In this document: in pieces, positions 1-48,169 of the stretch
How positions within the stretch are numbered: the first letter of the stretch is position 1
Layout: every line of letters starts with the position of its first letter
Assembly: GCA_049790315.1 (NCBI GenBank)
Contig: JBAQYV010000056.1
Span: 537-64,536, forward strand
DNA: 64,000 nucleotides
From: Candidatus Acidiferrales bacterium
GTDB lineage: Bacteria > Acidobacteriota > Terriglobia > Acidiferrales > UBA7541
Reading direction: 5' to 3'
Translations under genes and position numbers: made by a program
Notes under the pieces: generated by a model
Seen by the model: the letters and a program-made list of their open reading frames with translations, nothing else
Database searches by the model: none
Told to the model about the DNA's origin: nothing

Positions 1-3000
1 TCGCGACCAGCAGAACCAATGCGGCCGTCGGAACCAAGCGCCGCAGCGGCGATCGGTCATATCCGGCTAGACCTATCCCCCCCAGGAATAGCGCAATCGC
101 CGAGAGTGCCAACCATGTCGGCAATGACGTTGGAACGCTTGGCTCGTATGGTCCCAGCGGCCGTGCCGGTGTAGCCGAAACCGTCGTTCGCGACGTCGTC
201 GTCACCGTCATCGTCGTGCTGGTTCCCGGCGTCACGGAGCTCGGGTTGAACGTCGCCTCAGCGCCTGTCGGTAAACCGGATGCCGTAAAGGTCACTTGGC
301 TTGGCAACGTTCCGGCAACCGGCGCCGTCGTGATCACGAACATCGCCGATCCGCCCGCCGCCACCGTCTGCGGTCCGGTCGGACTCGATATGCTGTAATC
401 GATCACGGTGAACGTCAGACCGTTTGACGCGCCAACAGTCGGTGCCGCATTCAACACGGTGACCGTCGCGGCGCCGCCGACGGAAAGATCGGTCGCCGGA
501 ACCGTAGCAGTCAACTGCGTCGCACTGACGAACGTCGTGGTCAATGCCGCTCCGTTCCATTGCACAGCAGCGCCGCTCACGAAGTTGGTTCCCGTTACTG
601 TCAACATAAAGCTGGCGGTGCCGTCAAGCGCGGACGTCTGCGACAACGACGCGAGGGTGGGCGTCAGGTTGTTGACCGTGAACATTTGCGGAGCGGTGCT
701 CGCCGAGGCATATCCATTTGTGCTGGTGTATGCGGCGGAAAGCGTGTGCGTGCCAACGCTAAGACCGTTCACCGAGGTGGATGCGGTCCCGTTGACGAGA
801 TTCACCGATATTGTCGTGGTATCGACTGTGAACACGACCGAGCCCGCCGGCGTCACTCCTACGCCGGACACTGTCGCGCTGACCGTCACGGCCTGTCCGA
901 CTAGCGGTGAGGCTGGCGATATCGCGCCCAGTGCAATCGTAGGCGTGGGCGCCACGGATGGTCCGGTCAACGTCAACTGTACAGTCGACGGCGTGGAGAG
1001 CGCGGCGTTTGCGAGATTGCCGTTGAACGTCGCGACATCGGTCGGATTGACGAAGGTTGTCGGCGTAAATGCAGCGGTCAGTGTGCAAACTCCGCCTACG
1101 TTCACGGCCGATGGCAAAGTTCCCGTGAGAGTGCAGTCAGTGGAAGTAGCAGCCGCCAGACTGAAGTCTGTTGTATCGGTCTGGCTTACCGACGTCAGTT
1201 GCAGCGCCTGATTGCCGGACTCAAGCAGCGACGCATTCTGCGGCCCAGCACCCGCGCTCGCGAACTGCACGGCTCCCTGAGTACGCGTGAGTTTAAGAAC
1301 GCCTCCCCCGCTTCCCGTGTAGAGATTTCCGGCAGCATCGATCGCCAACGCAGAAGGCGTAACGCTCGCTACTGTAAACGCCGCGCTGTTCGCGCTGGCC
1401 GGAACGGCGAGAATCGCGGCCGTGTCGGCAATCAGTAAGTTCCCTGCCGCATCCGTGGCGATCGCCGACGGTTTCACCGCCGTAGAAGTTACAGTCGACG
1501 TCGCCCCGGTCGACACGTTGAACCGGTAAATCGCCGGCGCGCCGGGATCCGTAACCAGCAAGTTTCCACTCGGATCGATAGCAAGTCCGGCGGGCGCAAC
1601 CAAAGTGCCGACGGCAAGAACGCGCTGCGCTCCGGTAATCGGGCTGAGCTGATAAACGGCTAGCGCGGAAGAATCCGACACATAAAGATTGTTCAGCGCA
1701 TCGACAGTCAATCCACCGGGCTTCGTAAACTGTGACGGCAACGTAGCAACCGCGCCAGTCGGTGAAACCTGCGTGATCAAACCGGTCGATGTATCGGCGA
1801 CATAAACGAAACCCCGGGCATCGACGGCCACGGCGCCCGGCGCGGTGAGTGTTGCCAGGGTCGTCGAAGCGGCGCTTGTGCCCTGCGTGAGAGCTGCTGA
1901 GGCAAACTTCAACAGCGACTTGCTCTTAGCGTCCGACACGTAGACGTTTCCCGAATTATCGGTTGCAAGACCAGTGACCTGAAGGTTCGCACCAAAGTTA
2001 GTCTTGCTTGCGGGATCAAGCGTCGCACCTGCGCCAATGCCGGTGCCGGTAAGCGCGAGGAACGCCGTATTTCCACCGGAACTGTTCACCGTCAGCGGCG
2101 TTGAGCGCGCTCCCGGAACCGCCGGCGTAAAGCTGGAGTTCACGACGCAATCGACTGTCGTATCCAGGTTCGTGGTGCACGCCGGCGTGCCCAAACTCCA
2201 CTCGCTCGAAGCAGCGGCGAAAGCATTGGCGGTCGCCGGGCTATCGCCCGCGATGAAATGAATCTCGATCGGTAACGTCGTGGTGGCGGCGGTCGCGGTG
2301 GCCGGCGAATTCAAGTTCGTCGATACCTTACGAATCCGCGCGTTCAACGTGTCAGAGACGTAGATATTTCCGAGTGTGTCCGTGCCCACGCCGATGCCGT
2401 TGCCACCATCCCCGATAATGGCCTGGATTGCGGGGCAACCATCGCCGAAGCTGTCGGTTGCGCTGGCGCAATTCGTGGTCGTATCGCCCGCGATCGGGCG
2501 GATGAAGTCCGTACGGCCATCAACGAACCAAGCAGCGCCGGAACCGTCGGAAATATAGAGATCACCGCTCGTATCCATGGCCAGCTTCTGCGGGTTCATC
2601 GTTATCGTGTTGGCGAGCGCCGGGCCGGCATACGCCGCGCTTCCTCCGCCGGCCAATGTGTAGATGAATCCATTCTGTGGAGTCGTGACGCCGACTTTGT
2701 TCAAGAGTTGATAAAGCGCCGAGCCCGGTTCGCAGGTTACGCAAACCACGCGCACCTTCTGTGAATCGGCGATGTAGACATTGTCGTTGGCATCCGTCAA
2801 CACGCCCTGCGGATTATCGATCGTCGCGACGGTAGCGAGTCCATTATCGCCCGTTGATGTGGCAGCGCCTGTGCCCGCAAAAGTTTGGATCGTGCCCGTT
2901 GAATTGACAACGCGTATCTTGTTGTCACTCGTGTCCGCAATATAGACATTGCCGACGCTGTCCGCCCATGCGCCGCGCGGGTTGTTGAGCATAGCGGCCG

Positions 3001-6000
3001 TCGCTGCGCCGCCATCGCCATTTGTTGCCGTTGGAGACGAGGGCTTGGTTCCGTTGCCGCCAACGAGAAAGAGCAAGCCGGTCGGGACACTAAACTTGTA
3101 AACCTTATTGTCGTCGTAGCCCGCGATGTAGACATTGCCCTGTGGATCGGTGGAGACGCCGCGCGGTTTGTCAAGTTTCACCAGCGACGGCGTGCAACCA
3201 ACGGTCGCGCTCGGCAGGCAAGAAGTACCCGAAACAAAACCCGCGAAGTTGCTGATCACACCGTTCGGCGCAATCTTACGCACCAAGCTCGAGTTCGCAT
3301 CCGTCAGATACACATTGCCAAACGGATCGGCGGCGACGCTGCGCAGATCGACCGATCCGCTAAACACCATCGACGTTCCCTGGCAACCGTCACCGAAGCT
3401 GTCGGTGGATCCAGCGCACGCCGTGTTGGCGTTGGCCGCCGTGGAACCTCCTGCGATCGTGGACATCGTGTATGGCAGCGAGATGGGATTGCCGGGCAAC
3501 GGAACCAAAACCGGCGGGTTCACGGTGATCGCGATTGGCGGCGTCGAGGAGGACGTCGCGAAGCTTCCGCTCGCGAGATACGTCGCCGTTACGCTGTCGA
3601 CGCCGATCGGCAGGTCAACCGAAGCGATGGCCACTCCACTCGTTAGCGTGGCTGACGCGAGAGCTGTCGGCGTGGTGTTGCCAACGGTAGTGTACGAAAA
3701 GTTGACCGTTCCAGTCGGCGTTCCGGCGACGGAAGAGACCGTCGCGGTGAGCGTAACCGGAACTCCCAGAGTAGTGGTATTCGTATTCGCCGAAAGCCCG
3801 GTCGCGGTTACGGCCGGAGTAATCACAAGCGCGGCCGATGTCGATGTCGAGCCAGCGTTTACTCCGTCTCCGCTGTAGACACCAGAAATCGTATACGTTC
3901 CGACCGGCAAGCTGAAAATCGCCTGCGCCGTGCCCGAAGAACCGAGCGCCGCATTGCTGTAAACAAGGCCGTTCACAACGAATTCAACCGTGCCCGTCGG
4001 GCTGCTTCCCAACACTGTAGCTGTCGCGGTGAACGCCGTGCCGAATGTGGTCGTAACCGGCACGCCGGACAAAGTTGTTGTGCTGGGGCTCAAGCTCCCG
4101 GCATTAACCGTGATGACGTACGGCTCCGTCGTCGAGTACGGCGTGCCCGATACCGTAGGAACGTAGTTCGAATCGCCCGAGTAGGTCGCGACGAACGTGT
4201 GTGTGCCGATCGAAAGACCGCTGAGCGGGATGGAAATCGTGTCGCCGGTTCCGGGTAGCGTCACGGTGGTCGTGCTCCCGGCGCCGTCGCTTATCGTGAC
4301 CGTGCCCGTGGGATATGCGCTGCCTCCCACCGCTGGAGTAAGAATCACGACAGCCGTAGCCGTCTGTCCAGCAGTGATCGTCTGCGGCAAGCCCGCGGGC
4401 CCCGTCAGCTCCGGCGCAATAAGTGTGAAGCCGCACGACGGCAACGATAACGATGTCGCCGTTCGATTATCGGCAAGGGTGTTGCCGTTCATTCCGACAA
4501 ACGTCTGGTAATCGGTGACGATGTCCGTCGAGACCTGACCAGGACCGAGAGTCATCTGGGTTTCGCTAGGCGCGGGCGTCAGATCGGACGCGGGCAGCAT
4601 CGCAAAACTCACGTTGTCCAGAGTGAGAATCAGTGGATTGATCACGCCATTGTTGTCCGCTCCCGTCAGGCCCACCGTACCAGCCGTCAGGAACGCGAGA
4701 TTCTGCATCAGAATGCTCTTGAAGTTCGGTGTCAGGGTTCCGGTGTTGGTGTTGTAGACGGGCGTGAATTGAACTTCAATATTGTGATTCTCAAAGCACG
4801 AATTTGAATATTGGATGTTCTGCACCAGCCCGCCGCGATCGTTCGCGGATTTTATGCGGATTCCGGTGGAATTCGAATCAACGCTGCTGTTGCCGGCCAG
4901 CATGTTGCCGTCAAACAGGATGTTGCTCACACCGGCTGAAGTGAAGCTACCGATCGATTCGCCGTGGCCCGCGAAGAAATGATTATTGGTGACGGAAATA
5001 TTCGTCGAGGCCGAGCTGGGTCCGCCAGAAGCGCCAACGGCAACGTTGTCGTCGCCGTCGGAGATCCATGACCGCGTAATGGTGAAATTCTGTGCCTGAT
5101 CGGGATCGATGCCGTCCGTATTACGTGCGCTGGTCGGCGTGACGATCTTAATGTCCCACGCGGTCAAGCCATTGACTTCCCCGCCGTTCGTGGAAACGTG
5201 GAACAGCGGAGAATTTTTCAGCGTGATCTTATAAAGCGTGACGTTCGTCGCATTGCCCACCTGAATAAAGCGCGGATTTTGCTGGCTGCCGCCGCTATTG
5301 GCGATGGCCGACAGTCCCCACCAACTCTGCCCCGCGAAGCTCGACGGGAAAGCATTGATCAGAGTGTCGCCTCCACGGCCGTCCAGCTTGCCGAATCCCA
5401 TCACGCCAACGTTCGAAACGCCTGTAATGTTGATCAGCGGCAGGCACGAAGACGTGGCCGTGTTGGAATTCACCGTGCCGCAAGTGTGCGTGCCTTGCAC
5501 GACGTCGTAATCCTGCACGTTGCGCGAGAAATAAACGAAAACGCCAGGGTCGACCAGCAGAGTAACTCCCGAAGGCATATTCAGCGGACCTGTGAGGTAC
5601 GCATCGTGTCCAGCACCATCGATCGAAAGCCGTACGGCCTGATTCGTGTTCGCGCAGGAATTTAAAGCGGCCTGAATCCGCGCGCCGTCAGGATTGGTAA
5701 TCGTGGCGTCGACAGAAGTCGGGATGTCATCGTTCACCGACGTCAGCGCCGCGGCAAGCGTCGCGCAAACGGATGGGAACTCGGGTTCAGTAACGGTGCG
5801 GCTGTCGCCCGTGGCCACGGGTGCTGCGAAAGTTGTCGCTTCAATCGTCAGCTCACCGTTCGTAAATGTGAATGTATAGTTGCCGGCCGCAAGCGTACCG
5901 GTAGACGCAACGATCGGATATTCGCCAATCGCCGTGGGAGTCGCCGGGGTCGTAGTGAGCGACGGGGCGCCGCTCGTTGCGCTCGTCTGCGTATCTCCGT

Positions 6001-9000
6001 TCGCAAAACCGGTTATCGTCGCGGTGTAAGCGGGCGCGCTCTGCCCCATCATGATTGTGATGTTGTTCGCCGCAACCTGCAGAATGCCTCGCGCAACCGT
6101 GATCGCGATCGCGTTTGACGTGCTGGCCGCGTTGGTGATGTCGCCGCCGTAACTCGCCGTCAGCGTGTGACTCCCCGCCGCAACACCCGTGAGCGAGTAA
6201 CTGCAAGACCCTCCATTCAGCGTGCAGGTCCCGGCAGTCGCGCCATCCACAAGCAAACTCACCGCGCCCGTCGGGCTCACGCTGCCTGATGCGGGCGTTA
6301 CAGAAACTGTCCCGGTAATCGCAGTGCCATACGTTGTGCTGGGATTCGCGGACGTAAGCACCGAAGTGGTGTTGGTTAACGAAGCGGCCACAGTGATTGT
6401 GAACGTAGACGAAGACGAACTTGCATTGAAATTCGAATCGCCTCCATACGTCATCGTGATTGTGTGCGGACCGACAGCCAGCGTACTGATAGTAAGATAA
6501 GCCTCACCGCTGGCATCGAGCGTACCGGACGCTAGCACCGTGCTGCCATCCAGGAATTGATATGCGCCGGTAGGAATCACTCCCGCGCCCGGAGTCACAG
6601 GCCTGCCCAGAATCGTCACACTGCTTCCCGCGTTCACCGTCAAGCTGCCCGTCGGCGCGAACGAATTCACATCATTGGCCAACGCAGTTATCGGGTTCCA
6701 ATTCGCCTGGAATCCCGTGTAGGTTTGCGCCGGCACCGTCGCCGAAAGAAATGCCACGGGATAATATGCCGCGGCCTCCGCCGCCGTGAGACTCGTCTTG
6801 ATGGAATTCGACGCTTCGATCGTTCCCGGGTCCTGCGATTCCGTTTCGCGCGTACCCGTAACACCCGTGCCGGTGTTTCCTCCGGTGGGCGTCACATTGC
6901 CTGGCAGCGCAGCCGGATATCCGTCCGTTCCAACCGCCGGGTCCGTTAATGGAGAAGTGTTGTACTCCGCGTACGTTGACGTCGGAAGATTTGTATCGCC
7001 CGAGAATTCTATCCAGCCGATCGGATTCACCTGATCAACTTTCGAATTGAGCATGATCCAGGTCGAATACTGTCCGTACGGCCGGCCGTAATCCAGTTGC
7101 GTCATCCCTGTGCTCTGCGAAAACAGAGTGCAGGCGTTACAGACATAGCCGCTCAAATAATCGCTGGCGCTGCCAGTTTCAAATTTCTTGTTCTGCGCTT
7201 CGATGGTTTCTGTTCCCGTGGCAGAATTGCCGTGCCACGCTGTGAAAAATGTCGTGTGGTCATATACCATCGCCGCATCGCCGAACACATAGTCGACATC
7301 GCCGTTGATGGTTCCTTGCCACATGTATTGACGTGCCGCAGTGCAAGCGCTGCCGCATCCTTGGCTCCCCGCATAGAGCGTGTCCTGCTGGCTCGTCAGG
7401 TTCACGTTGTTCAACACAGCCTGATCCGCGGTAATCCACAACGCCAGCGCCTGCGAATTGCATTGTGTCCCGGCGTTGTAAATCGCTTGCAGTGTCTGCG
7501 CGGTCCCGGTATTCGCGCACGAACCGCTCGCCGTGGAATACGTGGTAGTTGTAGTGGGATCTGTGTTGTAAGTGTTTTGAATGGTCAGATACTCGGCGTA
7601 AAAATTAGCCGGGGTATATACAGCGTTGCCGGCCGTCGCCTGGTTGCCGATGAACGCGCTCTTCGAGACATCCAGTATCGATGATCCTTGATCTCCGCTG
7701 GCATTCGCATTGCCGGCGCCGCTGCCTGGGTAAACAAAGGGCGCTGAGAACGCACCATCCTCGCCCGCGATGATCACTTTCGTTGGATCGCCACCCAATC
7801 CGCGCAGCGACACATTGGGATAACTTATGGCGTTCTGCCCCGTGTAAGTTCCTGGCTTCAGGTAAATCGTGCCGCCGGTAACCGGTAGCGCAAGCAATGC
7901 AGCCGTCAGCGACGTGTAATTCCCGCTGCCGTCTGCCGCGACCACATTGTTTGACGCGCCGACTCCCGCGGTCGTGTTCGCCTTGGTCACTGCGTAGGTC
8001 GCCACCGAACCCGTGGATCCGATGTAATCGATCTGATCCGCCGGCGTAAACGTCACCGCCAGCGCATACGTGCCGATCGGCAGATAGCTCGAAGCGTCAA
8101 TCGACGTCGTCGGTCCGCCCGAAGGCGTCGCGGTGTAAGTGAAATCTCCAGGGACGTTTGGCGCGACGGTCGCATCCAGCACGCCCGAACCAATGCCCTG
8201 GCTGAATTGCTGCGTTACGACAGCCGGCGACCAGGTCACGACCGTGGCCGCCTGCTCCACGCTGAAATTCGTGGTAGTCGAATTCGATCCAGTGAAACCG
8301 TTCTGCGTCGCATACGACGCCGCGATCGTGTGGCTACCCGCGCTGATGCCCGAAAGCGTCACGGTCGCAGCACCGCTGCCATTCAGCGTGTACTGCGCTG
8401 CGGTGCCGGAATCCACCGTCACGTTCACGGTACCCGATGCCGTCCCACTGCTCGCTGCAACGGTCACGGTAAATACGACAGTCGGCCCGGTGGCCACGTA
8501 CACGGGATTCGCCGGCGTCTCTCCGCCAATCGTCGTCGTCGTTGTGATCGCCGCGCCTGTCTTCACCGCACTCATCGTTAAACCGCCGATAGTCGACGCC
8601 GCCGGCACATAACTGAGCACATCGCTCACCGTCCCGGTGCCCGCCTGCGGCGTAAATGTCGCCGACAGCGTGCAAGCATTGCCAACCGCCTGTGGCCCGA
8701 GCACGCTCGTCGTAAAGTCGCAAGGCGCGGTCGCTCCGCCCACCACCGCGAAGTCCGACGTGTCGGTCGTCGTGTTCGAGCCGGTCACGCTTTGATTGCC
8801 TACGTTCGTCAGCGTGCCCGCAAGAGTCGTCGCGATGCTTGATCCGAAGCTGAACGAGACTCCGTCGCGCACAACCTGTGTAATGCTCGTGCTGCCCGAA
8901 TCGGCGCTGTAAACATCGCCCGCACCGTCAACCGCAAGACCTGCCGGTGTCACAAGGCCCGTCAGTACCGTCGTGTTCGGACCGCCGACAGGCACCTCAA

Positions 9001-11656
9001 TCACCGACAGACTCACCGAATCCTGCACATAAAGATCGCCCGCCGCATCCACCGCGACTCCAACCGGAACCACCCCCGACAACGCGACAGTCGATTGCAC
9101 GTAGCCCGGGACTCCGCCGACCAAACCCGGCGTCAACTTGTAAACCGCCTCCGCACTCTTGTCTGCCACGTAGACGTTCCCGTACGCGTCAACCGCCAAC
9201 GAGACCGGATTGGTAAAGCCCGTCGCCACCGCCACCTGTGGCGCAAGCGTGTTCGGAACCAGCGACAGTCGGTAAATCGCCGTGTTGGCCGTCGTGCTCT
9301 GTTTATCCGCCACGAAAAGATTACCCGCATCATCCACCGCAATGGCTTGCGGCGTGGCCGTTCCGTTGATCGGCGTATACGAAACTGTTGTGTCCGTATA
9401 GGCAGATGGCTGACCGGCCGAGGCCGGCGCTCCGCTCACAGCAAGTTCTGTAATCGTCGGGGTCCCACTTCCCACCGCAAACACATCGCCAAGCTCATCC
9501 ACTGCGATCTGGCTTGGACTTGCCGGCAATGTTCCCGCCAAGGCCACGCTGCTTCCAGCCTGAATATCCTCAAGGAATTGCCCGCCGCGCGTGTCCATCG
9601 TGTACACGTTTCCGGCGCCATCCAGCGCCACACCCGCCGCAGTGATTCCGCTGAAGATTGCGTTCGTTGTGGGCGCGATGGGCGTGGTGGTTCCGTCATT
9701 CGAACTTGCGCTGTCAAACGCGAGCACCGACCCGGATACCGTTCCATCGAGAGCAATGTTCGCGACCGAAGTTGCCGCCGACCCACCGCCCGGAGTGAAC
9801 GGCAAACTCACGCTCAAAGTTGCGGATCGCAAACCGGCCCTCGAAGGCGTCGATGTCACGGCCACGTTGCAATCGAAAGAATTGTCGTGATTCTGGGCTC
9901 CGCAGCTCAGCGTGCCCGCTGTCATATCTGGTGTCGTCGTTAGCGCCGCGGCCGGCGTCGATGCGGTCCCGGCTGCCGTCTCTGAGAAGTGCACCTGGAA
10001 ATTCTGAATCAGCGTTGTGCCCACAGTCTGCTGAGCCAGCCCCTGCGCCAATACCTTGCGCACGAGCATGCCGGTGGCATTGCTGGAAGCGTCGAACAGA
10101 TAAAGATTATCCTGCCCATCCGCGGCAACGCCCAATCCGTTGCCGTTAGAAAAAAGAGAATCGGATGCAGGACACCCATCGCTATATGCGCTCAGCGATT
10201 CCTGGCCCGAAGAGCCCGTGCAAAAGCCGCCCGTCGTAACATTCGCCGAGCCCGTAAACAGCAACCGCACATACCCGGTATTCATGTCGTAGAAAACGAC
10301 CTTGCTGCTATCTCCAATAAAAATATTTCCCTGCGGAGTCACGTTCACCTTCGTGATCGTCGTGTCCGTGGCCTTCGTGCTCGTTCCGAGCGTCGGCGCG
10401 GCCGCGAGCGTTGTCCCTCCGCCGCCCCACAACAGGTAAATAAATCCAGGCTGCGGCGTCACGCCTGGATTGTTGGCGATAATCGCCGCCTGCATCTTCG
10501 CCGCTGCCGCGCTGGTGCCGCCCACATAAAACACGCGCAGCCCGTGCGTCGGATCGGTAAAAACCATATCGCCCGCCGCGTCGACAGCCACGCCGCTGGT
10601 ATATCCCGAGCTCGCCATCACAGAGCTAAAACTAAACGGGCAGCCGTCCCCGAGCGTGTCGAGCGCGGTTCCGGCGTACGTGAGGCTGTTCACAGTGTTC
10701 GAGCAGCTCTCGTTCACGGTCGTCGCCGTACCGCCCGTGCTCGCGCTCGTCCCCGTGATGTTCACTACCGAATATACAAATCCTTGTGTCACCGCCGCGT
10801 AATTCACTCCCAGCGCCGCATAAACCGGATTGTTCCCCGTAAAGTACGGCGATGTCAGCGGCCCCACCACCACGCGGGTGCGCGACGTTGTTGTGTCGGC
10901 AAAATAAATGTTGCCATACATATCTGCCGTGACGCCGCGCGGTTGATCCACTTCTCCGTTCGACGTTGTGCATCCCGCGGTTACAAAAGTTTGCACCGCC
11001 AGCACGTTGTCGATGCCCACGCCGCCCGAAGGACCGCTTCCCGCGTTCTTCACGCATCCCGCCATCAACCTCATCATTCCAACCTGCGCCGTGGTGCACA
11101 GCGGAGAGCCGACCCGGCAAACCAGATGAATCGCGTTATCGCCGTAGCCGGCAAGCAACACGTTGCCGTAAGGATCGATCCCGATGCCGCGTGACGCGCC
11201 AATTTTCGTCTGTGTCGCCGCAAGGCAGCCATCGCCTTCGGAATCCACAGCACCGCTCGCGCCCGCGCCGCTCGCTTCGGCGCACACGGAAGTCGCGCCA
11301 CCCGCCAGCACACTCATCACTCCGGTAGTAGGATCGACCACGTGAACGATGGAATTCACGTCGTCGGCGACAAATACATTCCCGAACGAATCCACCTCCA
11401 CGCCGCCGCGCCCCGCCGCGCCAAAAATTCCGTTAACCGCCAGACATCCGTCGCCAAAAGCATCTGTCGACACCGCACCCGTCCGCGCATTGAGCGTCGG
11501 ACACGGCGTGCCCGCCACCGCCGTCATCGGCGAGTTCCCGGCAATGGTCGACATCGTGTAGGGCAACGCAACGGAACTCTGTTGCGCGATTGCAGCTGGG
11601 GAGAAAACGACGCACAACACACACACGAATCCGGCGACGCGGGCGGGTCGCATCAT
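1..11656 (-). CDS. Giant secreted multidomain protein, >=3,885 aa, 3' end beyond left window edge. Order: signal peptide, NHL-type propeller array I, Ig-like repeats, CE8 pectin methylesterase domain, Ig-like repeats, GH28 polygalacturonase-type beta-helix, Ig-like repeats, NHL-type array II, Ig-like repeats, TM segments
   Basis: ATG ATG at 11656/11653 sits 6 nt after GGGAGG (rc of 11663-11668). The N-terminus [26 protein letters not shown] is Sec-signal-like. No track ORF anywhere in 1-11656 lies in this minus frame (first codon base = 1 mod 3). Hand translation at 2-262, 3121-3178, 3421-3500, 4801-5158, 7021-7140, 7261-7498, 7861-7978, 8281-8440, 9121-9205 and 11360-11656 gave continuous protein-like sequence in that frame. 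It is therefore one open frame with no in-window stop, which is why the track omits it. Confidence 0.85.
2..130 (-). other. C-terminal membrane module of giant CDS (truncated by window): TM helix, basic loop, start of second hydrophobic helix
   Basis: Base-by-base translation of 2-130 gives [44 protein letters not shown], with the frame still open at base 2. Confidence 0.7.
1300..3490 (-). other. Domain region of giant CDS: NHL-type beta-propeller repeat array II
   Basis: It opens with [15 protein letters not shown] (about 3445-3490), the same motif that opens array I. Blades include [20 protein letters not shown] (3121-3178) and [16 protein letters not shown] (about 1330-1380). Boundaries are approximate. 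Confidence 0.6.
4560..5790 (-). other. Domain of giant CDS: glycoside hydrolase family 28 (polygalacturonase-type) right-handed beta-helix
   Basis: Hand translation gives NTDGIDP (5102-5122), GDDNVAV (5036-5056), GHGESIGS (4946-4969) and RIKS (4847-4858). These are the four conserved GH28 active-site blocks (NTD, G/QDD, GHG, RIK) in the right order and spacing. The upstream [20 protein letters not shown] (about 5642-5701) resembles the GH28 N-terminal cap. Confidence 0.8.
6950..7945 (-). other. Domain of giant CDS: carbohydrate esterase family 8 (pectin methylesterase) beta-helix
   Basis: Hand translation gives [28 protein letters not shown] (from about 7945), [27 protein letters not shown] (7373-7453), [15 protein letters not shown] (7271-7315) and LDYGRPYG (7073-7096). 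These match the CE8 signature set QAVAL / QDTLY / DFIFG / GRPW, including both catalytic Asp and the Arg. Confidence 0.8.
8880..11566 (-). other. Domain region of giant CDS: NHL/SMP-30-like beta-propeller repeat array I (probably two propellers separated by a beta-sandwich insert)
   Basis: It opens with [11 protein letters not shown] (about 11536-11566). Blades of the type VD..GN(V/L)(Y/F)(V/I)AD recur, e.g. [14 protein letters not shown] (11360-11401) and [16 protein letters not shown] (about 9160-9205). Boundaries are approximate. Confidence 0.6.
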
Positions 11657-12307
11657 CAAACGCCTCCCAAGATAAACGTGTAGAAAAGCTAGTAGGGAAA
11701 AGGGACCGTTGTGGTACGTGCTATGCCACATTTAAAAAAACTAAAGATTAGACCCTATATACGTACGGGATTACTAAAGGCGGAGATTTGTAGTATCACT
11801 GGACGCAAACGTCAAGAGGAAAAATGCCTCGGCAAGCGGATTTTCCGTCATGCCAGCTTCCCACTGCCTTCCGGCGCCTTCACGAACCAGCTGAAGTCGC
11901 AGAAAACATTGGGTTAATCTCCGAATTGGGCCGTAGGACGGACCACCCCAACGGTTGCGTGCTTCACACTATGGTTCGAGATCAAATCAAGGAGATCCAC
12001 AAGATTCGCGATTTGACGACCGTATTCTCAATTCCAAAAAGTGGATTCTCGTCATGGCAAGTCGCACCTTACTCCTCCGAGCGAGTGGCCCCCTGCCGTC
12101 AGTCAATCGATTCGAAATGATCCATCGGACACTCTTTCCTACACCCACGTCGAAATGTGTCCCTTTTTGCACGGAAACACTTTCTCGCGCCATCTAATAT
12201 CCGGTATTGGTACGCTTGCGGATAATCCGCGCCAAAGAATCGAGTATCGGCGGCCAGAAGCCGAGCGATCAGCCGAACTAACAAGTACGAAGATAGAGGT
12301 AAACACT

Positions 12308-20637: not shown

Positions 20638-20882
20638 GCGAGGAATCGCTACCCAACATCTAAGAACAGCTTTACCGGCCGCGACACGTTCCTCGGTCCA
20701 AATTCGAAAACGCCCACGAACCAACGATCGCCATCCTGTGGATTTCTATTCGAATAGCTATATAATTATATTGACTAATGCGCCATAAACTGCTATCGTT
20801 TCCTATGTCCCCGAAACACATCCCCGCTCCCAAAATCATTCCAAATGCCTCGATTTGGCAACTTTCCACCCGCAACTCTCCC

Positions 20883-21044
20883 AGAATCAACACTTCCAGG
20901 ATTTTTCACGAATCCCGTATCTTATTGATTCCGCAGGATTTCAAACCTACTAGAATCAACACTTCTGGCTCAAAGGACTTAAAGTTCTTTAGAATCAACA
21001 GTTCTGGGAATAAGGACTTAAAGTCCTTTAGAATCAACACTTCC
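20883..21044. repeat. Intergenic direct-repeat array: 4 copies of AGAATCAACACTTC, the last three spaced 39 bp, with two units carrying an AAGGAC-TTAAA-GT(C/T)CTT hairpin
   Basis: Copies lie at 20883, 20952, 20991 (one mismatch) and 21030. Units 20952-20990 and 20991-21029 differ at 6 of 39 positions. The array lies between the convergent 3' ends of the ADOP gene and the 21096..21926 gene. Confidence 0.8.
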
Positions 21045-21095
21045 AAAAAACACGGTAGGGGGGAGGGGGGTTCGTCTCGCGAAGCCAGAAAACAG

Positions 21096-21926
21096 CTAAT
21101 TCGGGAACTGCTCGACCTTGATCACAATGTCGCCGTCGAAGCTCACGAACACCGTCTTGCCCGGCGGCGTGCCATAAATCCAGTCTTCAATCTCCGTGCC
21201 GTCAGCCTGCGTCTCGCGAACCTTGTGCTCCGGCTTGCCCATCGCCGCGATCACTTCGTCGCGCGTCATGCCGTAAACCGCTTTCTTGTCCGTGATCGCC
21301 TGCTGCACCTGTGGCGGCAGCGTAGTAACCCATTGCACCGCCGCGGAGCGCTGGCCGCCGAAATCCAGCATCGCCGAAAGATATTTCTTCAGGTCGTCGG
21401 GAGTCATGTCCGGCAGTGGCTTATCGAAATCCAGGTAGATGGTCGCGCCGGGCGTCGCCTGCAGCGAAGGCACATTAGGATCGCCCATCACCTGCCCCCC
21501 GCCGCCGACGTCCAGTTGCACGTGATCCTTCCAACTATTGCCCCTGTTTCCGCCACCATTGATGTACACAGCGATTTGCTTTTCGCGGAATTGCAGTTTT
21601 GTAATCTGAACTTTATCGCCCGGGTTGGCGGCCGCTTCGTGGCCCTGCAGCACCATCTGAAGTGTGTGCGTGTCCAGCGGCGCTCCCGCCTTCAAGTGGA
21701 AACCGCTCTTCCCCGTGGGCAGAGGAGCCACAGCTTTGGCGAATTCCCCGTCGACATAGCGCACCAGCGCCAGACGGGATTCTTCCTGCAATGTGTCGGA
21801 TTTCGGAGGGGTCTGATCTTCGGGGCCGCTGCCAGGCCCGGGAGCAGCGCGAAGCGGCAACGCCAGGGGCACAGTTCCCCCGATGAGGAAAATCGCCGAG
21901 GCCGCAATCCAGGTAAGGCGAGGCAT
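21096..21926 (-). CDS. Secreted hypothetical protein (C-terminal SmpA/OmlA/BamE-like motif, tentative)
   Basis: It has the signal peptide MPRLTWIAASAIFLIGGTVPLALPLRAAP. The C-terminus GMTRDEVIAAMGKPEHKVRE...EDWIYG...VFVSFDGDIVIKVE resembles the BamE-type fold motif. I recognise no other family. Confidence 0.65.
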   Translation of the reverse strand: MPRLTWIAASAIFLIGGTVPLALPLRAAPGPGSGPEDQTPPKSDTLQEESRLALVRYVDGEFAKAVAPLPTGKSGFHLKAGAPLDTHTLQMVLQGHEAAANPGDKVQITKLQFREKQIAVYINGGGNRGNSWKDHVQLDVGGGGQVMGDPNVPSLQATPGATIYLDFDKPLPDMTPDDLKKYLSAMLDFGGQRSAAVQWVTTLPPQVQQAITDKKAVYGMTRDEVIAAMGKPEHKVRETQADGTEIEDWIYGTPPGKTVFVSFDGDIVIKVEQFPN

Positions 21927-22133
21927 ACAGCACCTGCTGCTGGGATTCTACGCCGATTTGATGCCGCGTCCACAGAAAAGAAACGAATATTCGCTCAGGT
22001 CAGCCCGCCTGTCCCGCGACGGAACATCTTGCCAGCCTCCATTCCACGCCGCGTTTCCGCCTATGTTGGGTCGGAGGTCGCCTCCGCCCGTGTTCGTTTC
22101 GAGACACGCCATCATCTTTTTGGCCGCCGGCAA

Positions 22134-23174
22134 CTATGGCGTCGCCGACACCTGCACGCCTTGCCGGTCGATTCGCAACGGCATGAGTTGCGCGCCCGAT
22201 TTCGCCACGGCCGCTTCCACGCGCGCTCGCGCATCCGGCTCGATCAGCATCACCATGCAGCCGCCGCCGCCCGCGCCGCAAACTTTTCCCGCCAGCGCGC
22301 CTTCACGCCGCGCCGCGGCCAGCACGCGATCGATCGTCGCCGTCGAAATGGTCGGCAAATTGCAACGCCGGAATTCCCATTCCTCGCGCATCAACCGGCC
22401 CATTTCCTTCCACTCATTGCGCTCCAACGCCGCGCGCAATTCGCGCGCGACAGCCGCGATTTTTTCCAGATTTCGCACGATGCGCTTATCGCCATCGATA
22501 TGTTTCGCGAAAACTTCCCAATTATTGATTCCGTGTTGTCGCGGCTTGCCGGTGTAGCACAACACCAGTCGCCGCTCGAGTTCTTCGATGTCGCATCCGA
22601 GCGCCTCGCGCCGCTCGCCGCCCGGAGCCAGCACGATCGAGCTAACGCCGCCAAATGCCGCCGGATAATGATCCTGCGTTCCCGTCGGCACGCCGATCAC
22701 GATCGCCTCGGCATCGCGGCTGATGTGAATCCAATCCTCCAGTCGGCGGCCGGAGCCCGCCAGCCGATCGAGCGCCGCGCAAATCGCCACCGCCATGGCG
22801 CTCGATCCGCCCAGGCCCGCGCCCGACGGCACTTCCGAATTTGTAGTGAGCGTAAAGCCGACAGTAGGGCCGAAGAATCGCACGAGATGCGCCAGCAGCG
22901 GCAGCCGATAACGCCGCGCACGGCGCAACGCTTCAAGCGACGCGAACGATTCCCTTCGCCGCGTGTCCGTCGAGACGACAGCGATACCGCGTCGCCCTTC
23001 ACCTCGCGCGGTCCCGGTTCGTCCCTCGCCGCGCGTCTCGATCACGCAAGAAGCGTATCGCGCGATCGCGCAGTTCACAGTCAACGCGCCTTCGTGGAAC
23101 AGGTAGAGCGGCCAAATGTCGAGCGTGCCTCCCGCCAGATCCACTCGTGTGGGAGCACGGGCTTCAATTCTCAC
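22134..23174 (-). CDS. GHMP-family sugar kinase (HddA/fucokinase-like)
   Basis: It has RAPTRVDLAGGTLDIWP (motif I-like), EVPSGAGLGGSSAMAVA (motif II) and KVCGAGGGGCMVML (motif III). An Arg/Gly-rich insert ETRGEGRTGTARGEGRRG follows the first strand block. Confidence 0.8.
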   Translation of the reverse strand: MRIEARAPTRVDLAGGTLDIWPLYLFHEGALTVNCAIARYASCVIETRGEGRTGTARGEGRRGIAVVSTDTRRRESFASLEALRRARRYRLPLLAHLVRFFGPTVGFTLTTNSEVPSGAGLGGSSAMAVAICAALDRLAGSGRRLEDWIHISRDAEAIVIGVPTGTQDHYPAAFGGVSSIVLAPGGERREALGCDIEELERRLVLCYTGKPRQHGINNWEVFAKHIDGDKRIVRNLEKIAAVARELRAALERNEWKEMGRLMREEWEFRRCNLPTISTATIDRVLAAARREGALAGKVCGAGGGGCMVMLIEPDARARVEAAVAKSGAQLMPLRIDRQGVQVSATP

Positions 23175-23278
23175 TTTGACTCGCCCTCCTGCGTGAAGTT
23201 AGCCTCGTGCTGGCGCGATCGGCATCGCACGATTCGCGGCCCGGCACAACGAATGTTTGACGGAGCGGATGATAGCAG

Positions 23279-24394
23279 ATGAGCGCAATGCACAGACGCA
23301 AATCGGATTGGCCGCGCGAAGTGCTCGCGCGCTTCGTCGTTGGATTTGAAGGCGCGCGTGTCACCGGCGAACTCGCGTCGCTACTCGAAGGCGGACTCGC
23401 CGGCGTCGCCATCTTCCGCCGCAACTACCGCGGCGTCGATGAACTGCGTTCGCTCACCGCGGAAATTCGCCGCGCCGCCGGCAGGCCGGTACTAATTGGA
23501 ATGGATCAAGAAGGCGGACGTGCGCGCTTCGCGCTCGATGCTCCGTTTACGATTTGGCCGGGCGCGGCGGCGCTTGGCCAAATCGGTGATGCCGCGCTTG
23601 TCGAGGAAATCGCCACAGCTATGGCGCGGGAGCTGCGCGCCGCGGGAGCGAATCTTGATTTCGCTCCGATGCTGGATTTGCACATTCAGCCGGAAAGTCC
23701 GATCACACGCGAGCGCAGTTTCGGCGCGGACCCGGAAATTGTCGCGCGTCTCGGCCGCGCGTTCGTTTGCGGATTGCGCGCGGGCGGCGTGCTCGCGTGC
23801 GCGAAGCATTTTCCGGGGCATGGTGACACGCGGACCGATCCGCATCTCGATTTGCCGGCATTTTCGGGACCGCTCGAGCGGCTTGAAACAGTGGAGTTGA
23901 TTCCCTTCGCCGCGGCGATCGCTGATTCGGTCCCGCTGATCATGACGGCGCACATTCTGCTGCCGCAAATCGATTCCGAGCGGCCGGCTTCTCTTTCGCG
24001 CCGCGTTCTCACCGGGTTGTTGCGCGAACAAATGGGTTTTCGTGGCGCGATTATCGCCGACGATCTCGGCATGGGGGCAATTGCGAGAACTTTCAGCGCG
24101 GGCCAAGCGGCTGTCGAGACATTCGCCGCCGGCGCGGACCTTGCGATGTTGTGTCACGAAGAATCCGCTGTTGCACCGGCCATCGATGCCGTCGCGCGCG
24201 CGCTGGAGGCGGGACAGTTTGACGCCGCCGAATGGAAAGCGAGCCAGGCGCGCATCGAGCGCCTCGTCGCCGCCGGGGACTCGAACGGCGATGCACTCAC
24301 CGCCGTGGGCGGCGACCAAAATGTGATCGGCTGCGATGCGCACCACAAGTTGGCCGAAACTGCGCGCCGTAAAGCGAGCGAGATCCGAGAGTGA
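23279..24394 (+). CDS. nagZ: Beta-N-acetylhexosaminidase, GH3 (NagZ type)
   Basis: It has LIGMDQEGGR, NLDFAPMLD, KHFPGHGDTRTDPHLDLP and GFRGAIIADDLGMGAI, which are GH3 NagZ signature blocks. Confidence 0.85.
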   Translation: MSAMHRRKSDWPREVLARFVVGFEGARVTGELASLLEGGLAGVAIFRRNYRGVDELRSLTAEIRRAAGRPVLIGMDQEGGRARFALDAPFTIWPGAAALGQIGDAALVEEIATAMARELRAAGANLDFAPMLDLHIQPESPITRERSFGADPEIVARLGRAFVCGLRAGGVLACAKHFPGHGDTRTDPHLDLPAFSGPLERLETVELIPFAAAIADSVPLIMTAHILLPQIDSERPASLSRRVLTGLLREQMGFRGAIIADDLGMGAIARTFSAGQAAVETFAAGADLAMLCHEESAVAPAIDAVARALEAGQFDAAEWKASQARIERLVAAGDSNGDALTAVGGDQNVIGCDAHHKLAETARRKASEIRE

Positions 24395-29426: not shown

Positions 29427-29503
29427 GTGTGGTTATGCGTGAAATCCCGCACTTCGGAGAGATTGCCACGTCATTATTGAGATCCAGAGAATCGAGCGCG
29501 AAC

Positions 29504-30847
29504 ATGAAATCAAACGACGCTGGTGGGCACCGATGGCCCAGAGTTCCGATGGTGTTTTTATTTATCGCGGGCGTGACGTGCGGATGCGGCGGCGGCAAGA
29601 ATAACGATGCCGACAATCCGGCGAACGCGCCGAAAGCGGCTGTTGTGATGGTGCAGCGCAGGGACCTTTCCGACACGCTCGAGATTGCGTCGGAATTTCT
29701 GCCGTTTCAGGAGATCGACGTCTACGCGAAAGTCTCCGGTTACATCCAGAAATTGGACGTGGATTGGGGAACGCACGTGAAGCGCGGCCAACTGCTCGCG
29801 GTGCTGGAAATTCCGGAGCTGCAACAACAACTGCTGCAGGACGAAGCCGACGTGCGGCACAGCGAACAAGATGTGGCGCGCGCGCACGAGGAGATGACGA
29901 GCGCTGAATCGGCCTACGATGTCTCTCACTTGACGTACACGCGGCTGGAAGATGTGGACAAGAGCAGGCCGGGCCTTGTCGCGCAGGAAGAAGTTGACGA
30001 GGCACACGGGAAAGATATTCAAGGGAACGCCGGGGTTTCCGCCGCCAAGGATTCGCTAGCCGGCTCGCAGCAGGCGCTGGCCGCGGCGCAAGCGATGCTT
30101 GAAAAAGATCGCGTGATGTTCGGGTACGCGCGCATCACGGCGCCATTCGATGGCGTGGTGACACAGGTGAACGCTTACACGGGCGCGCTTTTGCCCGCGG
30201 GAACTTCGTCGAATAAGGGAGACCTTTCGCTGTGCCATCTGTCGCAAAACAATCTGTTGCGGCTGGTGATTCCGGTGCCGGAGGAGGCCGTGCCGGACGT
30301 TAAGGATGGCGAGACGATCGCGGTAAAAGTATCGGCGCTGAACAAAACATTCCAGGGACAAATCGTGCGCATCGCAGGACAAATCGATATGGACACGCGG
30401 ACAATGCACACGGAAGTGGACGTGCCGAATGCGGATTACGTGCTCGTGCCGGGAATGTACGCGTCGGTGGAAATTCCGTTGCATCATTTGACGCAGGTTC
30501 TAACGGTGCCCATACAGGCGGTGCAGACTTCCGGCAACGGGCAAGGATCAGTGCTGGTGGTGAACGCCGCCAATCAGATCGAGCGGCGCGGCGTGACGCT
30601 TGGTTTGGAGACGGCGACAGAGTACGAAGTGACCGGAGGATTGCGCGAGGGCGAGCGCGTGATTTTCGGCGAGCAGAGCCAATACAGGCAGGGCGAGTTG
30701 GTTTCGCCGCAAATCGTTCAGCCAGGGGCGGCGCCAGCGCAAGCATCGCCGGCACCGCCAGCGGGTTCGAGATCAACGATCTCACTTACGCCTCCGCCAT
30801 CTTCGTTATCACCAGAGGGCGCGACCGCGCCTTCGGCGACGGAGTAG
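29504..30847 (+). CDS. RND efflux periplasmic adaptor (membrane fusion protein)
   Basis: It has the lipoyl/hairpin pattern DVYAKVSGYIQKLDVDWGTHVKRGQLLAVLEIPELQQQLLQDEADV...ARITAPFDGVVTQVN. Met-26 of the track ORF gives a signal/lipoprotein-like N-terminus (MKSNDAGGHRWPRVPMVFLFIAGVTCGC). A GTG at 29429, 2 nt after the RraA stop, is the alternative start. Confidence 0.85.
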   Translation: MKSNDAGGHRWPRVPMVFLFIAGVTCGCGGGKNNDADNPANAPKAAVVMVQRRDLSDTLEIASEFLPFQEIDVYAKVSGYIQKLDVDWGTHVKRGQLLAVLEIPELQQQLLQDEADVRHSEQDVARAHEEMTSAESAYDVSHLTYTRLEDVDKSRPGLVAQEEVDEAHGKDIQGNAGVSAAKDSLAGSQQALAAAQAMLEKDRVMFGYARITAPFDGVVTQVNAYTGALLPAGTSSNKGDLSLCHLSQNNLLRLVIPVPEEAVPDVKDGETIAVKVSALNKTFQGQIVRIAGQIDMDTRTMHTEVDVPNADYVLVPGMYASVEIPLHHLTQVLTVPIQAVQTSGNGQGSVLVVNAANQIERRGVTLGLETATEYEVTGGLREGERVIFGEQSQYRQGELVSPQIVQPGAAPAQASPAPPAGSRSTISLTPPPSSLSPEGATAPSATE

Positions 30848-30855
30848 GCGCGCCG

Positions 30856-33800: not shown

Positions 33801-34029
33801 GCCGATTCTGATGACTTCGCTTGCGACGATTGTCGGTCTGCTGCCCATGGCGCTGAAACTCGAAACGGGCAGCGAAGCGTATGCGCCGCTGGCCCGCGTG
33901 ATCATCGGCGGATTGCTGACCTCGATTGTGCTGACGGTTTTCGTGGTGCCGGCGGCTTACTTGATGATTTATCGCGATCGAGCGGCGACGGTGGGAAATG
34001 CGGGAGATGTGGTCCCGGCGGAAAGTTGA
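30856..34029 (+). CDS. RND efflux transporter permease (AcrB/HAE family)
   Basis: The protein is 1,057 aa with 12-TM RND architecture and the typical N-terminus MPSFSLKHPYFIIVLCLFACALGLISTFQMPVDMFPPINIPVV. Confidence 0.95.
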   Translation: MPSFSLKHPYFIIVLCLFACALGLISTFQMPVDMFPPINIPVVLVATFYSGMPPQQIEADITDTFERFFTLGSGIDHMESRSMTGVSLIKIYFQPGTDANADVTQISNLAMADLRRLPQGTLPPVVMKVDASSLPVCLLTVEGQGLSETELHDVLQYQIRNQIAGVPGATVPPPYGGKYRQIMVYVDPLKLQAHQLSPMDVVRATDQSNLILPAGDVRIGPMDYNIYTNAQVANAEALNNIPIKTDGQNSVFLSDVGKAVDGSALQYNIVRVNGQRSVYVPILKQGGDTNTIEVVNGIKKAILTLRDIPPQLKAHVVFDQSLFVKQAISTVIREGGIGLLLTAVMVLIFLGSMRATLAVFLSIPISLLATFFFLHLGGGTINSMVLSGLALAFSRLIDNSVVVIENIYRHLEQGAEPAVAAEQGTNEVALAVLAITLVTVVVFFPVTLLFGVSKYLFSALALGVVIALFASYFVAVTVVPLFCARFLKAIAHHGAEAVAGGASRASKLGARFNIWFNAQFQRLLEAYDRWVQRALDEPGYVLGGFACVFVLSFALMPLVGLSFFPRTDAGQFVIHLKAPTGTRIEVTEGYVAQVEDIIRQQIPKDELNTVVSNIGLMSDLSSLFTPNSGMHTAFIQVGLAPDHRVSSFEYMDRVRQQVAQQLPQVRTFFESGGLVDAVLNQGAPAPIDVQVSGSDLNADSRVAQDLARQFKQLAGISDVYVPQDMDYPALQVNVNRARASELGLNPQEVVDNIITALTSNAMIAPSYWVDPKTGNNYFVTVQYPENQVRSIEDLKTMPLRAPKLTQPTYLDQVADITQIMSPTEVDHYQLERSIDVYVAPTAEDLGKPLERINKVIRSTELPAGIRIDTRGLVVTMQQSFRSFGFGLVLAILLLYLILVAQFSSFIDPFLIVLAVPTGLIGVMLTLAFTSTTLNVQSLMGIVMLQGMVVSNSILIVDFANVLRAQGHSVREAVAHSCRIRLRPILMTSLATIVGLLPMALKLETGSEAYAPLARVIIGGLLTSIVLTVFVVPAAYLMIYRDRAATVGNAGDVVPAES

Positions 34030-34042
34030 TAGGAGAACCGCA

Positions 34043-40501: not shown

Positions 40502-40570
40502 TTTTGGTTCGGCCTGTTACCGCGGGATTTCGATTCCAATGCGCAATCCATACGCCACCAAGGAGAACTG

Positions 40571-41347: not shown

Positions 41348-41371
41348 GCTCTTCGCGGCCAGCGCTCGCAG

Positions 41372-42034: not shown

Positions 42035-42092
42035 CGGGATGGCTGGCTCCAGTCTTTGTCTCGCGTGACCCGCGTGCGTTCCTTGCGTTCTG

Positions 42093-43187: not shown

Positions 43188-43271
43188 GAAATCTCCTCTA
43201 TCTATTATTGCAGACAATTTCGACGGGGGACGGCCGGCAACTGCTAAACACGAGCATCGTCCCGCGGAATA

Positions 43272-44684: not shown

Positions 44685-44748
44685 GTTTGGACGACTCGGT
44701 CCTTAAAAATATACAAATCCGCGAATCGAATGCAGCTGCGAGAACCGA

Positions 44749-48142: not shown

Positions 48143-48169
48143 GCCCTGTCTCCTCCCAGTACGAGGCAG

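Follow-up and report, generated by a model that had tools for sequence, protein, structure and literature searches.

Can one bacterial polypeptide carry both a pectin methylesterase (PME) and a polygalacturonase (PG), and where in the cell would such a chain be held? Few soil bacteria are as abundant as the Acidobacteriota, and the way in which they deploy their enzymes against plant polymers is poorly understood. Isolates of subdivision 1 of this phylum include pectin degraders, for example Granulicella pectinivorans (according to a reference listed in PMC4885859). The question is raised by the left end of a 64,000-nucleotide stretch of DNA from a Candidatus Acidiferrales bacterium (assembly GCA_049790315.1, contig JBAQYV010000056.1), the whole of which is called the window below. 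There, complement(2..11656) translates into 3,885 sense codons with zero stops and runs off the window edge. To the conclusion that follows we give a probability of roughly 0.78. The gene encodes a giant envelope protein of Terriglobia, about 3,932 residues long and a member of a conserved family, in which a methylesterase of family CE8 and a polygalacturonase of family GH28 are borne on a repetitive scaffold anchored by its C-terminal tail.

The frame was missing from the list of open reading frames (ORFs) that accompanied the sequence, because it runs off the window and such ORFs are unlisted; over the giant gene the list holds short ORFs in other frames only. The original prediction, made from the sequence and this list, had recognized the omission and had proposed a single uninterrupted frame of at least 3,885 codons; it was right on both counts. 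The start codon at 11656 is preceded by a Shine-Dalgarno-like motif, and in-frame stops are found further upstream. A promoter and terminator scan upstream of the gene returned no sites, with no sigma-70-like promoter in 11500-12300. A second copy of the locus is carried by contig JBAUAA010000149.1 of a metagenome-assembled genome (MAG; GCA_049675265.1). This contig aligns with positions 1-9374 of the window at 99.55 % identity, with 42 mismatches and 0 gaps over the shared 9,374 bp, and therefore comes from a separate assembly, of a strain nearly identical to this one. The frame is thereby confirmed over residues 782-3885, and the stop, expected by the original prediction to the left of the window, falls 47 codons past window position 1, so that the complete protein has about 3,932 residues. 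The MAG copy is itself broken by the contig end, which is why its deposited product (P0121, ‘pectinesterase family protein [Candidatus Acidiferrales bacterium]’, Terriglobia, Acidobacteriota), 99.5 % identical to the giant, is only 3,151 residues long. Thr, Ala, Gly, Ser and Val together make up 58 % of the giant protein, a composition typical of secreted repeat proteins.

The domain map was built from a whole-protein Pfam scan, a scan of ten segments and a hidden Markov model (HMM) of the internal repeats. The features of the gene, read from its start, are listed here.

11663..11668, minus strand: Shine-Dalgarno-like GGGAGG, 6 nt upstream of the ATG at 11656, read directly from the sequence.
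2..11656, minus strand: giant ORF, 3,885 codons in the window, about 3,932 residues in full.
11585..11656, minus strand: Sec-type signal peptide, residues 1-24 (MMRPAR, hydrophobic core, AIA/QQ), assigned by eye; homologues share the start.
8522..11569, minus strand: NHL array I, residues ~30-1045 (Pfam NHL and SBBP; PDB Pizza/PknD, 166 bits).
8255..8512, minus strand: Big_3_5 domain 1, residues 1049-1134, holding the Ig-like peptide quoted in the original prediction.
5834..8254, minus strand: CE8 cassette, residues 1135-1941, made of an Ig/MBG-like domain, CE8, two Big_3_5 domains and MBG_2.
Within the CE8 cassette, minus strand: Ig/MBG-like domain, residues 1135-1225 (segment scan and repeat HMM).
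6737..7969, minus strand: CE8 pectin methylesterase domain, residues ~1230-1640 (Pfam; alignment to 1xg2 and 1gq8).
6092..6649, minus strand: Big_3_5 domains 2 and 3, residues 1670-1757 and 1770-1855.
5846..6082, minus strand: MBG_2 domain, residues 1859-1937 (Pfam).
4457..5818, minus strand: GH28 polygalacturonase module, residues 1947-2400 (Pfam; 1BHE).
3518..4393, minus strand: Big_3_5 domains 4-6, residues 2422-2518, 2531-2613 and 2623-2713.
932..3487, minus strand: NHL array II, residues 2724-3575 (Pfam, PDB sequence matches, AlphaFold2, Foldseek).
671..922, minus strand: Big_3_5 domain 7, residues 3579-3662.
404..664, minus strand: choice-of-anchor Z repeat (NF058597), residues ~3665-3751 (101 bits, cut-off 30).
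2..403, minus strand: terminal Ig-like domain with lipo-invert tail, residue 3752 to the end (NF058595 from residue ~3813, window 220 downwards).

With the whole protein as query, Pfam gives Big_3_5 (PF16640) at 222 bits in 7 stretches, above cut-off, and the internal HMM also places seven such domains. NHL (PF01436) reaches 81.6 bits (cut-off 20), TEN_NHL (PF25021) 69.6 bits (cut-off 27.1), SBBP 86 bits and MBG_2 56 bits. Glyco_hydro_28 (PF00295) scores 134.6 bits (cut-off 22.9) and Pectinesterase (PF01095) 100.4 bits, rising to 108 bits with the CE8 segment alone (cut-off 27). The four families anticipated by the original prediction (Pectinesterase, Glyco_hydro_28, NHL and Big_3_5) are therefore all well above their gathering cut-offs. 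Its architecture also holds, with a Sec-type signal, two NHL arrays, Ig-like spacers, CE8, GH28 and a C-terminal membrane segment in one chain, and the motifs it had named are all present, from the Ig-like peptide starting at residue 1075 (window 8434 downwards) to the CE8 and GH28 sets. GH28 sits about 300 residues C-terminal of CE8, and NHL or Ig scaffold accounts for over 75 % of the chain. The NCBIfam scan of the whole 3,885-residue protein missed the choice-of-anchor Z repeat, which the C-terminal 340 residues alone recover at 101 bits. This is probably an effect of the HMMER bias filter on a long, compositionally skewed protein, so that whole-protein scans of such giants can overlook domains.

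The same protein exists elsewhere. A scan of one genome per GTDB species gave 569 related stretches. In a Terriglobia MAG (L005) and on a 2.1-Mb contig (L007), one high-scoring segment pair covers giant residues 1-3932, at 76 and 74 % identity, respectively. The type strain Bryocella elongata DSM 22489 (NZ_FNVA01000001.1:651226-673008) matches residues 5-3932 at 49 % identity. All three proteins end in the same tail as the giant. Altogether, at least 10 species representatives have a single ORF of 2,600-4,230 residues with full CE8 and GH28 motif sets, and the CE8+GH28 protein of Edaphobacter dinghuensis (3,283 residues) is identical in two assemblies. Database names assigned automatically to these relatives are ‘pectinesterase family protein’, ‘Ig-like domain repeat protein’ and ‘polygalacturonase/sugar lactone lactonase YvrE’.

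Are the two enzyme modules intact? The CE8 active site consists of two Gln, two Asp and one Arg, whose catalytic role is established for the family. The CE8 segment of the giant aligns with tomato PME (1xg2, 72 bits) and carrot PME (1gq8, 53 bits). In these alignments, QALAL1402, QDTLY1424, DYVFG1455 and GRPY1524 of the giant face QAVAL, QDTLY/QDSLY, DFIFG and GRPW of the plant enzymes. The key residues are Q1402, Q1424, D1425, D1455, R1525 and W1548; in carrot PME the catalytic set is Q113, Q135, D136, D157 and R225. The aromatic residue that follows GRP is a Tyr in the giant, not a Trp.

The GH28 module aligns over residues 1951-2351 with nearly all of Pectobacterium PehA (1BHE) at 200 bits. 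Its NTDGIDP, GDDNVA, GHG.SIGS and RIKS motifs match those of PehA residue for residue (NTDGID at 2179, GDD at 2201, GHG at 2230, RIK at 2267), with D2181, D2202, D2203, H2231, R2267 and K2269 as key residues. The module opens with DSRTVTEP, which is the N-terminus of mature PehA (DSRTV[ST]EP). This start, together with the near-full collinearity, indicates that a complete secreted-enzyme module is embedded in the giant chain, and the enzyme is probably of the endo-acting PehA type, as judged by its sequence. The equivalog names PglA, BT4153 and BT4155 were rejected for the giant, their scores being far under the NCBIfam cut-offs.

For both enzymes, the residues that the original prediction had matched by eye are thus at homologous positions, the Asp, Arg and Gln of CE8 when aligned to 1xg2 and 1gq8 and the GH28 residues when aligned to 1BHE. 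They are also all invariant in an alignment (A1) of the giant with nine other CE8+GH28 giants that are 53-72 % identical. With full catalytic sets invariant in 10 giants, both modules appear intact and functional. Between orthologues, identity is 91 % for GH28, 81 % for the CE8 cassette and about 76-82 % for the scaffold. Between Bryocella and the giant the corresponding values are 71, 53 and 40 %. GH28 is the most conserved region between the giant's orthologues, and the better conservation of GH28 and of the CE8 cassette is the pattern expected if purifying selection acts on working enzymes.

The end of the chain suggests how it might be held. Completed from P0121, the tail matches the NCBIfam ‘lipo-invert putative C-terminal anchoring domain’ (NF058595) at 84.5 bits (cut-off 37) over positions 2-113 of 113, with only the first ~73 matched residues inside the window. 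It corresponds to window 2-220 (minus strand) plus 141 nt past the edge, and to positions 9157-9517 of the MAG copy (locus L001). The choice-of-anchor Z repeat (NF058597) precedes it. The order within the tail is a transmembrane (TM) helix, a YDRSPLRRL loop, a second helix, a Cys and some 40 residues ending in TPAGTYSIVVTATSGTAVHSTTVTLIVQ. Of these elements, the first helix and the start of the second are inside the window, whose edge cuts off the last 47 residues and with them the lipobox Cys and the final beta-hairpin. Tails of this type occur in 42 of 240 relatives, and in 20 aligned examples the lipobox Cys and one Arg are invariant. Hence, the TM segments of the original prediction exist as C-terminal membrane helices, and the match to NF058595 makes a curated lipo-invert tail the better description. 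A literature search on the lipo-invert domain found no paper that mentions it.

In an AlphaFold2 model of the tail (mean predicted local distance difference test, pLDDT, of 71), an Ig-like sandwich is followed by a disordered linker and two helices, and the chain ends in a hairpin (pLDDT >90). In a Foldseek search with this model, Ig domains of 86 residues span about 180 query columns (TM-scores 0.61-0.66). The terminal hairpin therefore appears to belong to the sandwich, into which the helical pair is inserted. The insert, of about 90 residues, comprises the TM helix and an Arg/Lys cluster, then a lipoprotein-signal-like helix that ends in the invariant Cys. In our reading, helix 1 would stop transfer, the Arg cluster would stay cytoplasmic and helix 2 would re-export the last strands in the manner of a lipoprotein signal peptide.

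The window encodes a second lipo-invert protein at 54532-58245 (plus strand; 1,237 residues). Its tail is complete, with RRRRR, a LASC lipobox and a TPAGSYLITVTAISG hairpin, and the rest of the protein has YNCE/lactonase/NHL-type propeller matches and two Big_3_5 domains. Its gene is divergent from a stand-alone GH28 gene at the edge of the uronate cluster described below.

Both NHL arrays resemble known propellers, and they are about 29 % identical to each other. In array I, a divergent propeller region at the N-terminus is followed by a beta-sandwich and then by a PknD-like propeller (residues ~756-928). In a PDB sequence search this array matches the PknD sensor propeller and the ‘Pizza’ designs at 166 bits. 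In array II, a six-bladed NHL propeller (2730-3115) and a PknD-like one (~3226-3460) are each followed by a sandwich, the first of which (3126-3207) is Ig-like; the array matches PknD/Pizza and, at 105 bits, a bacterial teneurin-like protein. AlphaFold2 modelled residues 2716-3212 from 14 sequences (pLDDT 80; predicted template modelling score 0.77) as six four-stranded blades followed by the Ig-like sandwich. The best Foldseek neighbour of the modelled propeller is the teneurin-like 9ifo (E = 8e-25), with Pizza6 at a TM-score of 0.8. Other neighbours are SOQ1, teneurins, NHLRC2, TRIM71 and Thin, all of them binding or scaffold NHL propellers. The NHL propellers that the original prediction had described are in this way backed by Pfam, PDB sequence matches, AlphaFold2 and Foldseek. 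The lectin-like character that it gave them gains no support from the top 50 structural neighbours, none of which is described as a lectin, and is not contradicted by them either. Two other assignments were rejected. One is ScyF (NF035926, scytonemin NHL PEP-CTERM), whose 90.5 bits against a cut-off of 350 reflect generic NHL similarity. The other is that of lyase or lactonase propellers, since Foldseek gives them no support and SGL Pfam matches are below or near their cut-offs. Most likely, the NHL and Ig parts act as spacer and binding scaffold.

Taken together, these elements suggest a mechanism in which lipidation, membrane or surface location, enzyme activity, endo mode and propeller role are all predicted. 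The Sec signal would export the giant chain. The lipo-invert tail would then attach it to a membrane by means of a stop-transfer helix, an Arg cluster and a lipoprotein-signal-like helix with the lipobox Cys, all set in the last Ig-like domain. CE8 would de-esterify methylated homogalacturonan and the adjacent GH28 would cleave the de-esterified stretches, presumably in endo mode, so that the synergy of PME and PG, which is textbook pectin biochemistry, would become intramolecular. The NHL and Ig parts would serve as spacer and binding scaffold around the two enzymes. Finally, the oligogalacturonides and galacturonate released could feed the hexuronate catabolism encoded 28 kb away.

Several points weigh against this proposal. 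Residues 1-781 are backed by orthologues of up to about 82 % identity, the near-identical copy covering residue 782 onwards. The NCBIfam equivalogs score below their cut-offs on the GH28 module (PglA 68 vs. 600, rhamnogalacturonidase 43 vs. 650, galacturonidase 31 vs. 800). The lipo-invert domain is a computational model that NCBIfam itself labels ‘putative’, and a cut by signal peptidase II at the lipobox would leave the passenger on the helical hairpin and not on a lipid. Four close relatives (P0233, L006, L009 and L015) are devoid of the TM tail, so that tethering is dispensable in the family; relatives with other, TM-less C-termini fit the ‘choice-of-anchor’ idea. Finally, Acidobacteria have two membranes, and in such a host a 400-kDa protein could stay in the periplasm or on the inner membrane.

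This last point leads to the alternative that survives best. The substrates of the giant may be imported oligogalacturonides and not polymeric pectin, with the protein at work in the periplasm or at the inner membrane instead of the cell surface, or the giant may be released by proteolysis and work untethered; we consider this possible and, on balance, rather unlikely. The sole membrane elements of the chain, a stop-transfer helix and a lipoprotein-signal-like helix, would by default insert in the cytoplasmic membrane, and neither an outer-membrane secretion signal nor dedicated secretion genes were found beside the giant gene. Relatives without a TM tail exist, as just seen, and TonB-dependent-receptor-like genes flank the Edaphobacter homologue. 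However, PehA-type endo-polygalacturonases and PMEs are known to act on polymers too big for passage through the outer membrane, and a scaffold exceeding 3,000 residues is easier to understand as a long-reach surface structure. Furthermore, choice-of-anchor domains are defined, according to NCBIfam naming, by their association with surface-sorting signals. We prefer a tail-anchored envelope protein that carries both enzymes.

A bolder version of the anchored protein concerns modularity. In a motif census of 240 relatives made with strict motif criteria, 107 have the CE8 set only, 107 the GH28 set only and 14 both. CE8-only relatives are about 2,050 residues long and collinear with giant residues 1-1940 (Granulicella mallensis and G. 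rosea, for example). GH28-only relatives are mostly of about 3,250 residues, and some, such as that of Edaphobacter aggregans, have about 1,770 residues in the order signal peptide, GH28, Ig, NHL. The closest distinct relative (P0122, at L002:10001-19396; 80-82 % amino-acid identity) is 82, 91 and 82 % identical to the giant over the shared regions and lacks residues 1135-1941, that is, the CE8 cassette of about 805 residues (window 5834-8254). The DNA flanking the cassette is 78.5 and 77.2 % identical between the two genes, with a clean gap between, and at the protein level the breakpoints fall in inter-domain linkers. Since P0122 is nearest to the giant in each region that they share, and the more distant L005, L007 and Bryocella keep the cassette, its in-frame loss in the P0122 lineage would be more parsimonious than a gain in the giant.

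CE8-only, GH28-only and dual forms thus share a scaffold, from which the cassette is precisely absent in P0122. On this basis the giants could be regarded as a cassette-swapping surface platform with a new kind of anchor, in which lipoprotein processing at the invariant Cys would leave a lipidated C-terminal hairpin to complete the last Ig sandwich. The 400-kDa enzyme array would in this way be joined, without a covalent bond, to a lipid anchor able to reach the outer membrane by trafficking. This is a speculative extension that we hold to be improbable in its full form. PME-PG fusion evidently arose repeatedly, or spreads. Among other matched loci, in which no motif-complete ORF is found, are some of Actinomycetota, Rhodanobacteraceae and Myxococcales MAGs. 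Small proteins of about 800-1,100 residues with a signal peptide, GH28 and CE8, in that order, are common in Acidobacteriota MAGs (P0107, L057, L064, L072, L074, L075 and L081).

Could the giant instead be an adhesin or an S-layer-like structural protein, in which CE8 and GH28 are non-catalytic pectin binders, or in which the NHL propellers are the catalytic parts, as lyase or lactonase? The large share of NHL and Ig scaffold in the chain would suit a structural protein. The JGI names of relatives (‘sugar lactone lactonase YvrE’ or ‘streptogramin lyase’) and weak SGL and Lactonase Pfam matches in the giant point in the same direction, as does the resemblance of the terminal Ig domain to S-layer SbsC domains in Foldseek. 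However, the catalytic residues of both enzymes do not vary among the 10 giants, and the enzyme modules are the best conserved parts. In addition, the top 50 Foldseek neighbours of the modelled array II propeller are binding or scaffold NHL propellers, with no lectin, polysaccharide lyase or lactonase among them, and the SGL matches are below or near cut-off. We judge such a protein very unlikely.

The weakest alternative is an assembly chimera, in which repeat-rich NHL/Ig sequence would have joined two or three neighbouring genes or a stop would have been lost by sequencing error: CE8-only (~2,050 residues) and GH28-only (1,770-3,300 residues) proteins are indeed separate genes in many genomes, and the break of the MAG copy at a contig end marks the locus as hard to assemble, but the independent assembly is indel-free over 9.4 kb spanning CE8, GH28 and array II, three other species (one on a 2.1-Mb contig, one a type strain) have single collinear ORFs, the E. 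dinghuensis fusion recurs unchanged in two assemblies and the giant's junctions are in-frame and in linkers, all of which leaves an artefact hardly credible.

What of the surroundings of the gene? A cluster for catabolism of hexuronates and pectin products, with gene content assigned by profile search, occupies the following positions.

39,293-53,757, minus strand: hexuronate/pectin-product catabolic cluster.

Its genes encode an enolase-superfamily dehydratase, a KDPG aldolase, a PfkB kinase, a major facilitator superfamily transporter, a GFO/IDH oxidoreductase, UxaC (643 bits), an amidohydrolase, a short-chain dehydrogenase/reductase, an altronate-dehydratase-type enzyme and a stand-alone GH28. 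The original prediction had spoken of a complete galacturonate catabolic cluster. Genes of hexuronate catabolism, including UxaC, are indeed there, and completeness is more than can be claimed, as a canonical UxaB was not identified in the 39.3-53.8 kb cluster. The link that it implied between this cluster and the giant proved loose. About 28 kb of unrelated genes separate the two (DUF488, a molybdopterin oxidoreductase, a MacB-type permease, GH3, a resistance-nodulation-division (RND) efflux system and a pyridoxal phosphate-dependent decarboxylase). No hexuronate catabolic genes were found within 10 kb of the P0121, P0122 and P0233 loci, nor was such a cluster found within 10 kb of the Edaphobacter homologue. 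An operon link was rejected, given the intervening genes and the lack of conserved linkage; the two are a case of genomic co-occurrence, not of an operon.

The stand-alone GH28 of the cluster (window 52105-53757, minus strand; 153 bits) has a twin-arginine-like N-terminus, SRRKFMQG. Because it is only 29 % identical to the GH28 of the giant, it probably differs from it in subfamily or specificity. Immediately downstream of the giant gene, the MAG copy has a DUF481 gene (385 residues; L001:9819-10976) at a distance of 300 bp, and at the P0122 locus the downstream gene is a different one, encoding a 226-residue protein without Pfam match. The window is generally rich in genes for carbohydrate use. 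An 834-residue ORF at 20778-23282 (plus strand), with no Pfam match at E <= 1e-4, overlaps the start of the GH3 gene (23279-24394) by 4 nt. The RND efflux operon lies at 29429-35344 (plus strand), with an HlyD-type adaptor, an AcrB-type pump and an outer-membrane factor. The Leloir-pathway genes galT and galK stand beside a GH27 alpha-galactosidase gene at 58316-61992.

The significance of the giant lies in envelope biology and in the ecology of soil carbon turnover, and not in a new principle. A whole clade mounts both enzymes, methylesterase and polygalacturonase, on a single, very long scaffold that is probably attached to the cell, and pectinase cassettes come and go among close relatives. 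The anchoring mechanism and the cassette modularity are its most interesting aspects. Because orthologues are carried by cultured strains, Bryocella elongata DSM 22489 and Edaphobacter dinghuensis, the architecture, location and anchor are accessible to experiment.

How does the giant compare with known systems? The original prediction was correct in what it observed, and its functional interpretation holds for the most part; it went too far on the novelty of the architecture and on the tie to the catabolic cluster. It knew of no described enzyme with this architecture. A literature search on acidobacterial NHL-pectinase giants and on pectinases of Terracidiphilus, Edaphobacter and Bryocella returned nothing relevant, which agrees with that statement as far as the giants are concerned. 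The architecture itself is not without precedent, since it recurs in public genomes, and three or more further species, one of them represented by a type strain, have full-length orthologues. In addition, a natural PME-PG fusion has been characterised in a fungus. In the bifunctional pectinase of Penicillium oxalicum SX6 (Tu et al., 2014, Appl Microbiol Biotechnol 98:5019, PMID 24584459), PME and PG are reported as separate catalytic domains. Like the giant, it pairs a CE8-type methylesterase with GH28 in one natural polypeptide, and it sets a precedent for PME/PG synergy within a single molecule. Unlike the giant, it is reportedly a small, secreted, two-domain protein, with no propellers, Ig spacers or anchor. 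Homology of the fungal and acidobacterial fusion events is unlikely.

Closer counterparts come from the Acidobacteriota themselves. The Bryocella elongata, L005 and L007 proteins share with the giant its domain order, its catalytic residues and its lipo-invert tail. The E. dinghuensis protein, in contrast, ends after the first propeller of array II with a different, TM-less C-terminus. Small fusions of about 800 residues have both motif sets, as the giant does, but GH28 comes first and neither scaffold nor anchor is present. For the catalytic modules, the closest solved relatives are PehA (1BHE) and the plant PMEs (1XG2 and 1GQ8), which differ from the giant in being stand-alone secreted enzymes of 320-380 residues. 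For the tail, the counterparts are NF058595 and NF058597, both matched well above cut-off and both computational definitions. The giants thus form a conserved, publicly deposited and unstudied family that brings no new enzyme chemistry, and the pairing of PME with PG has precedent. The giant differs from known PME-PG fusions in its scale, in its twin NHL arrays and Ig spacers, and also in the cassette polymorphism and the lipo-invert tail.

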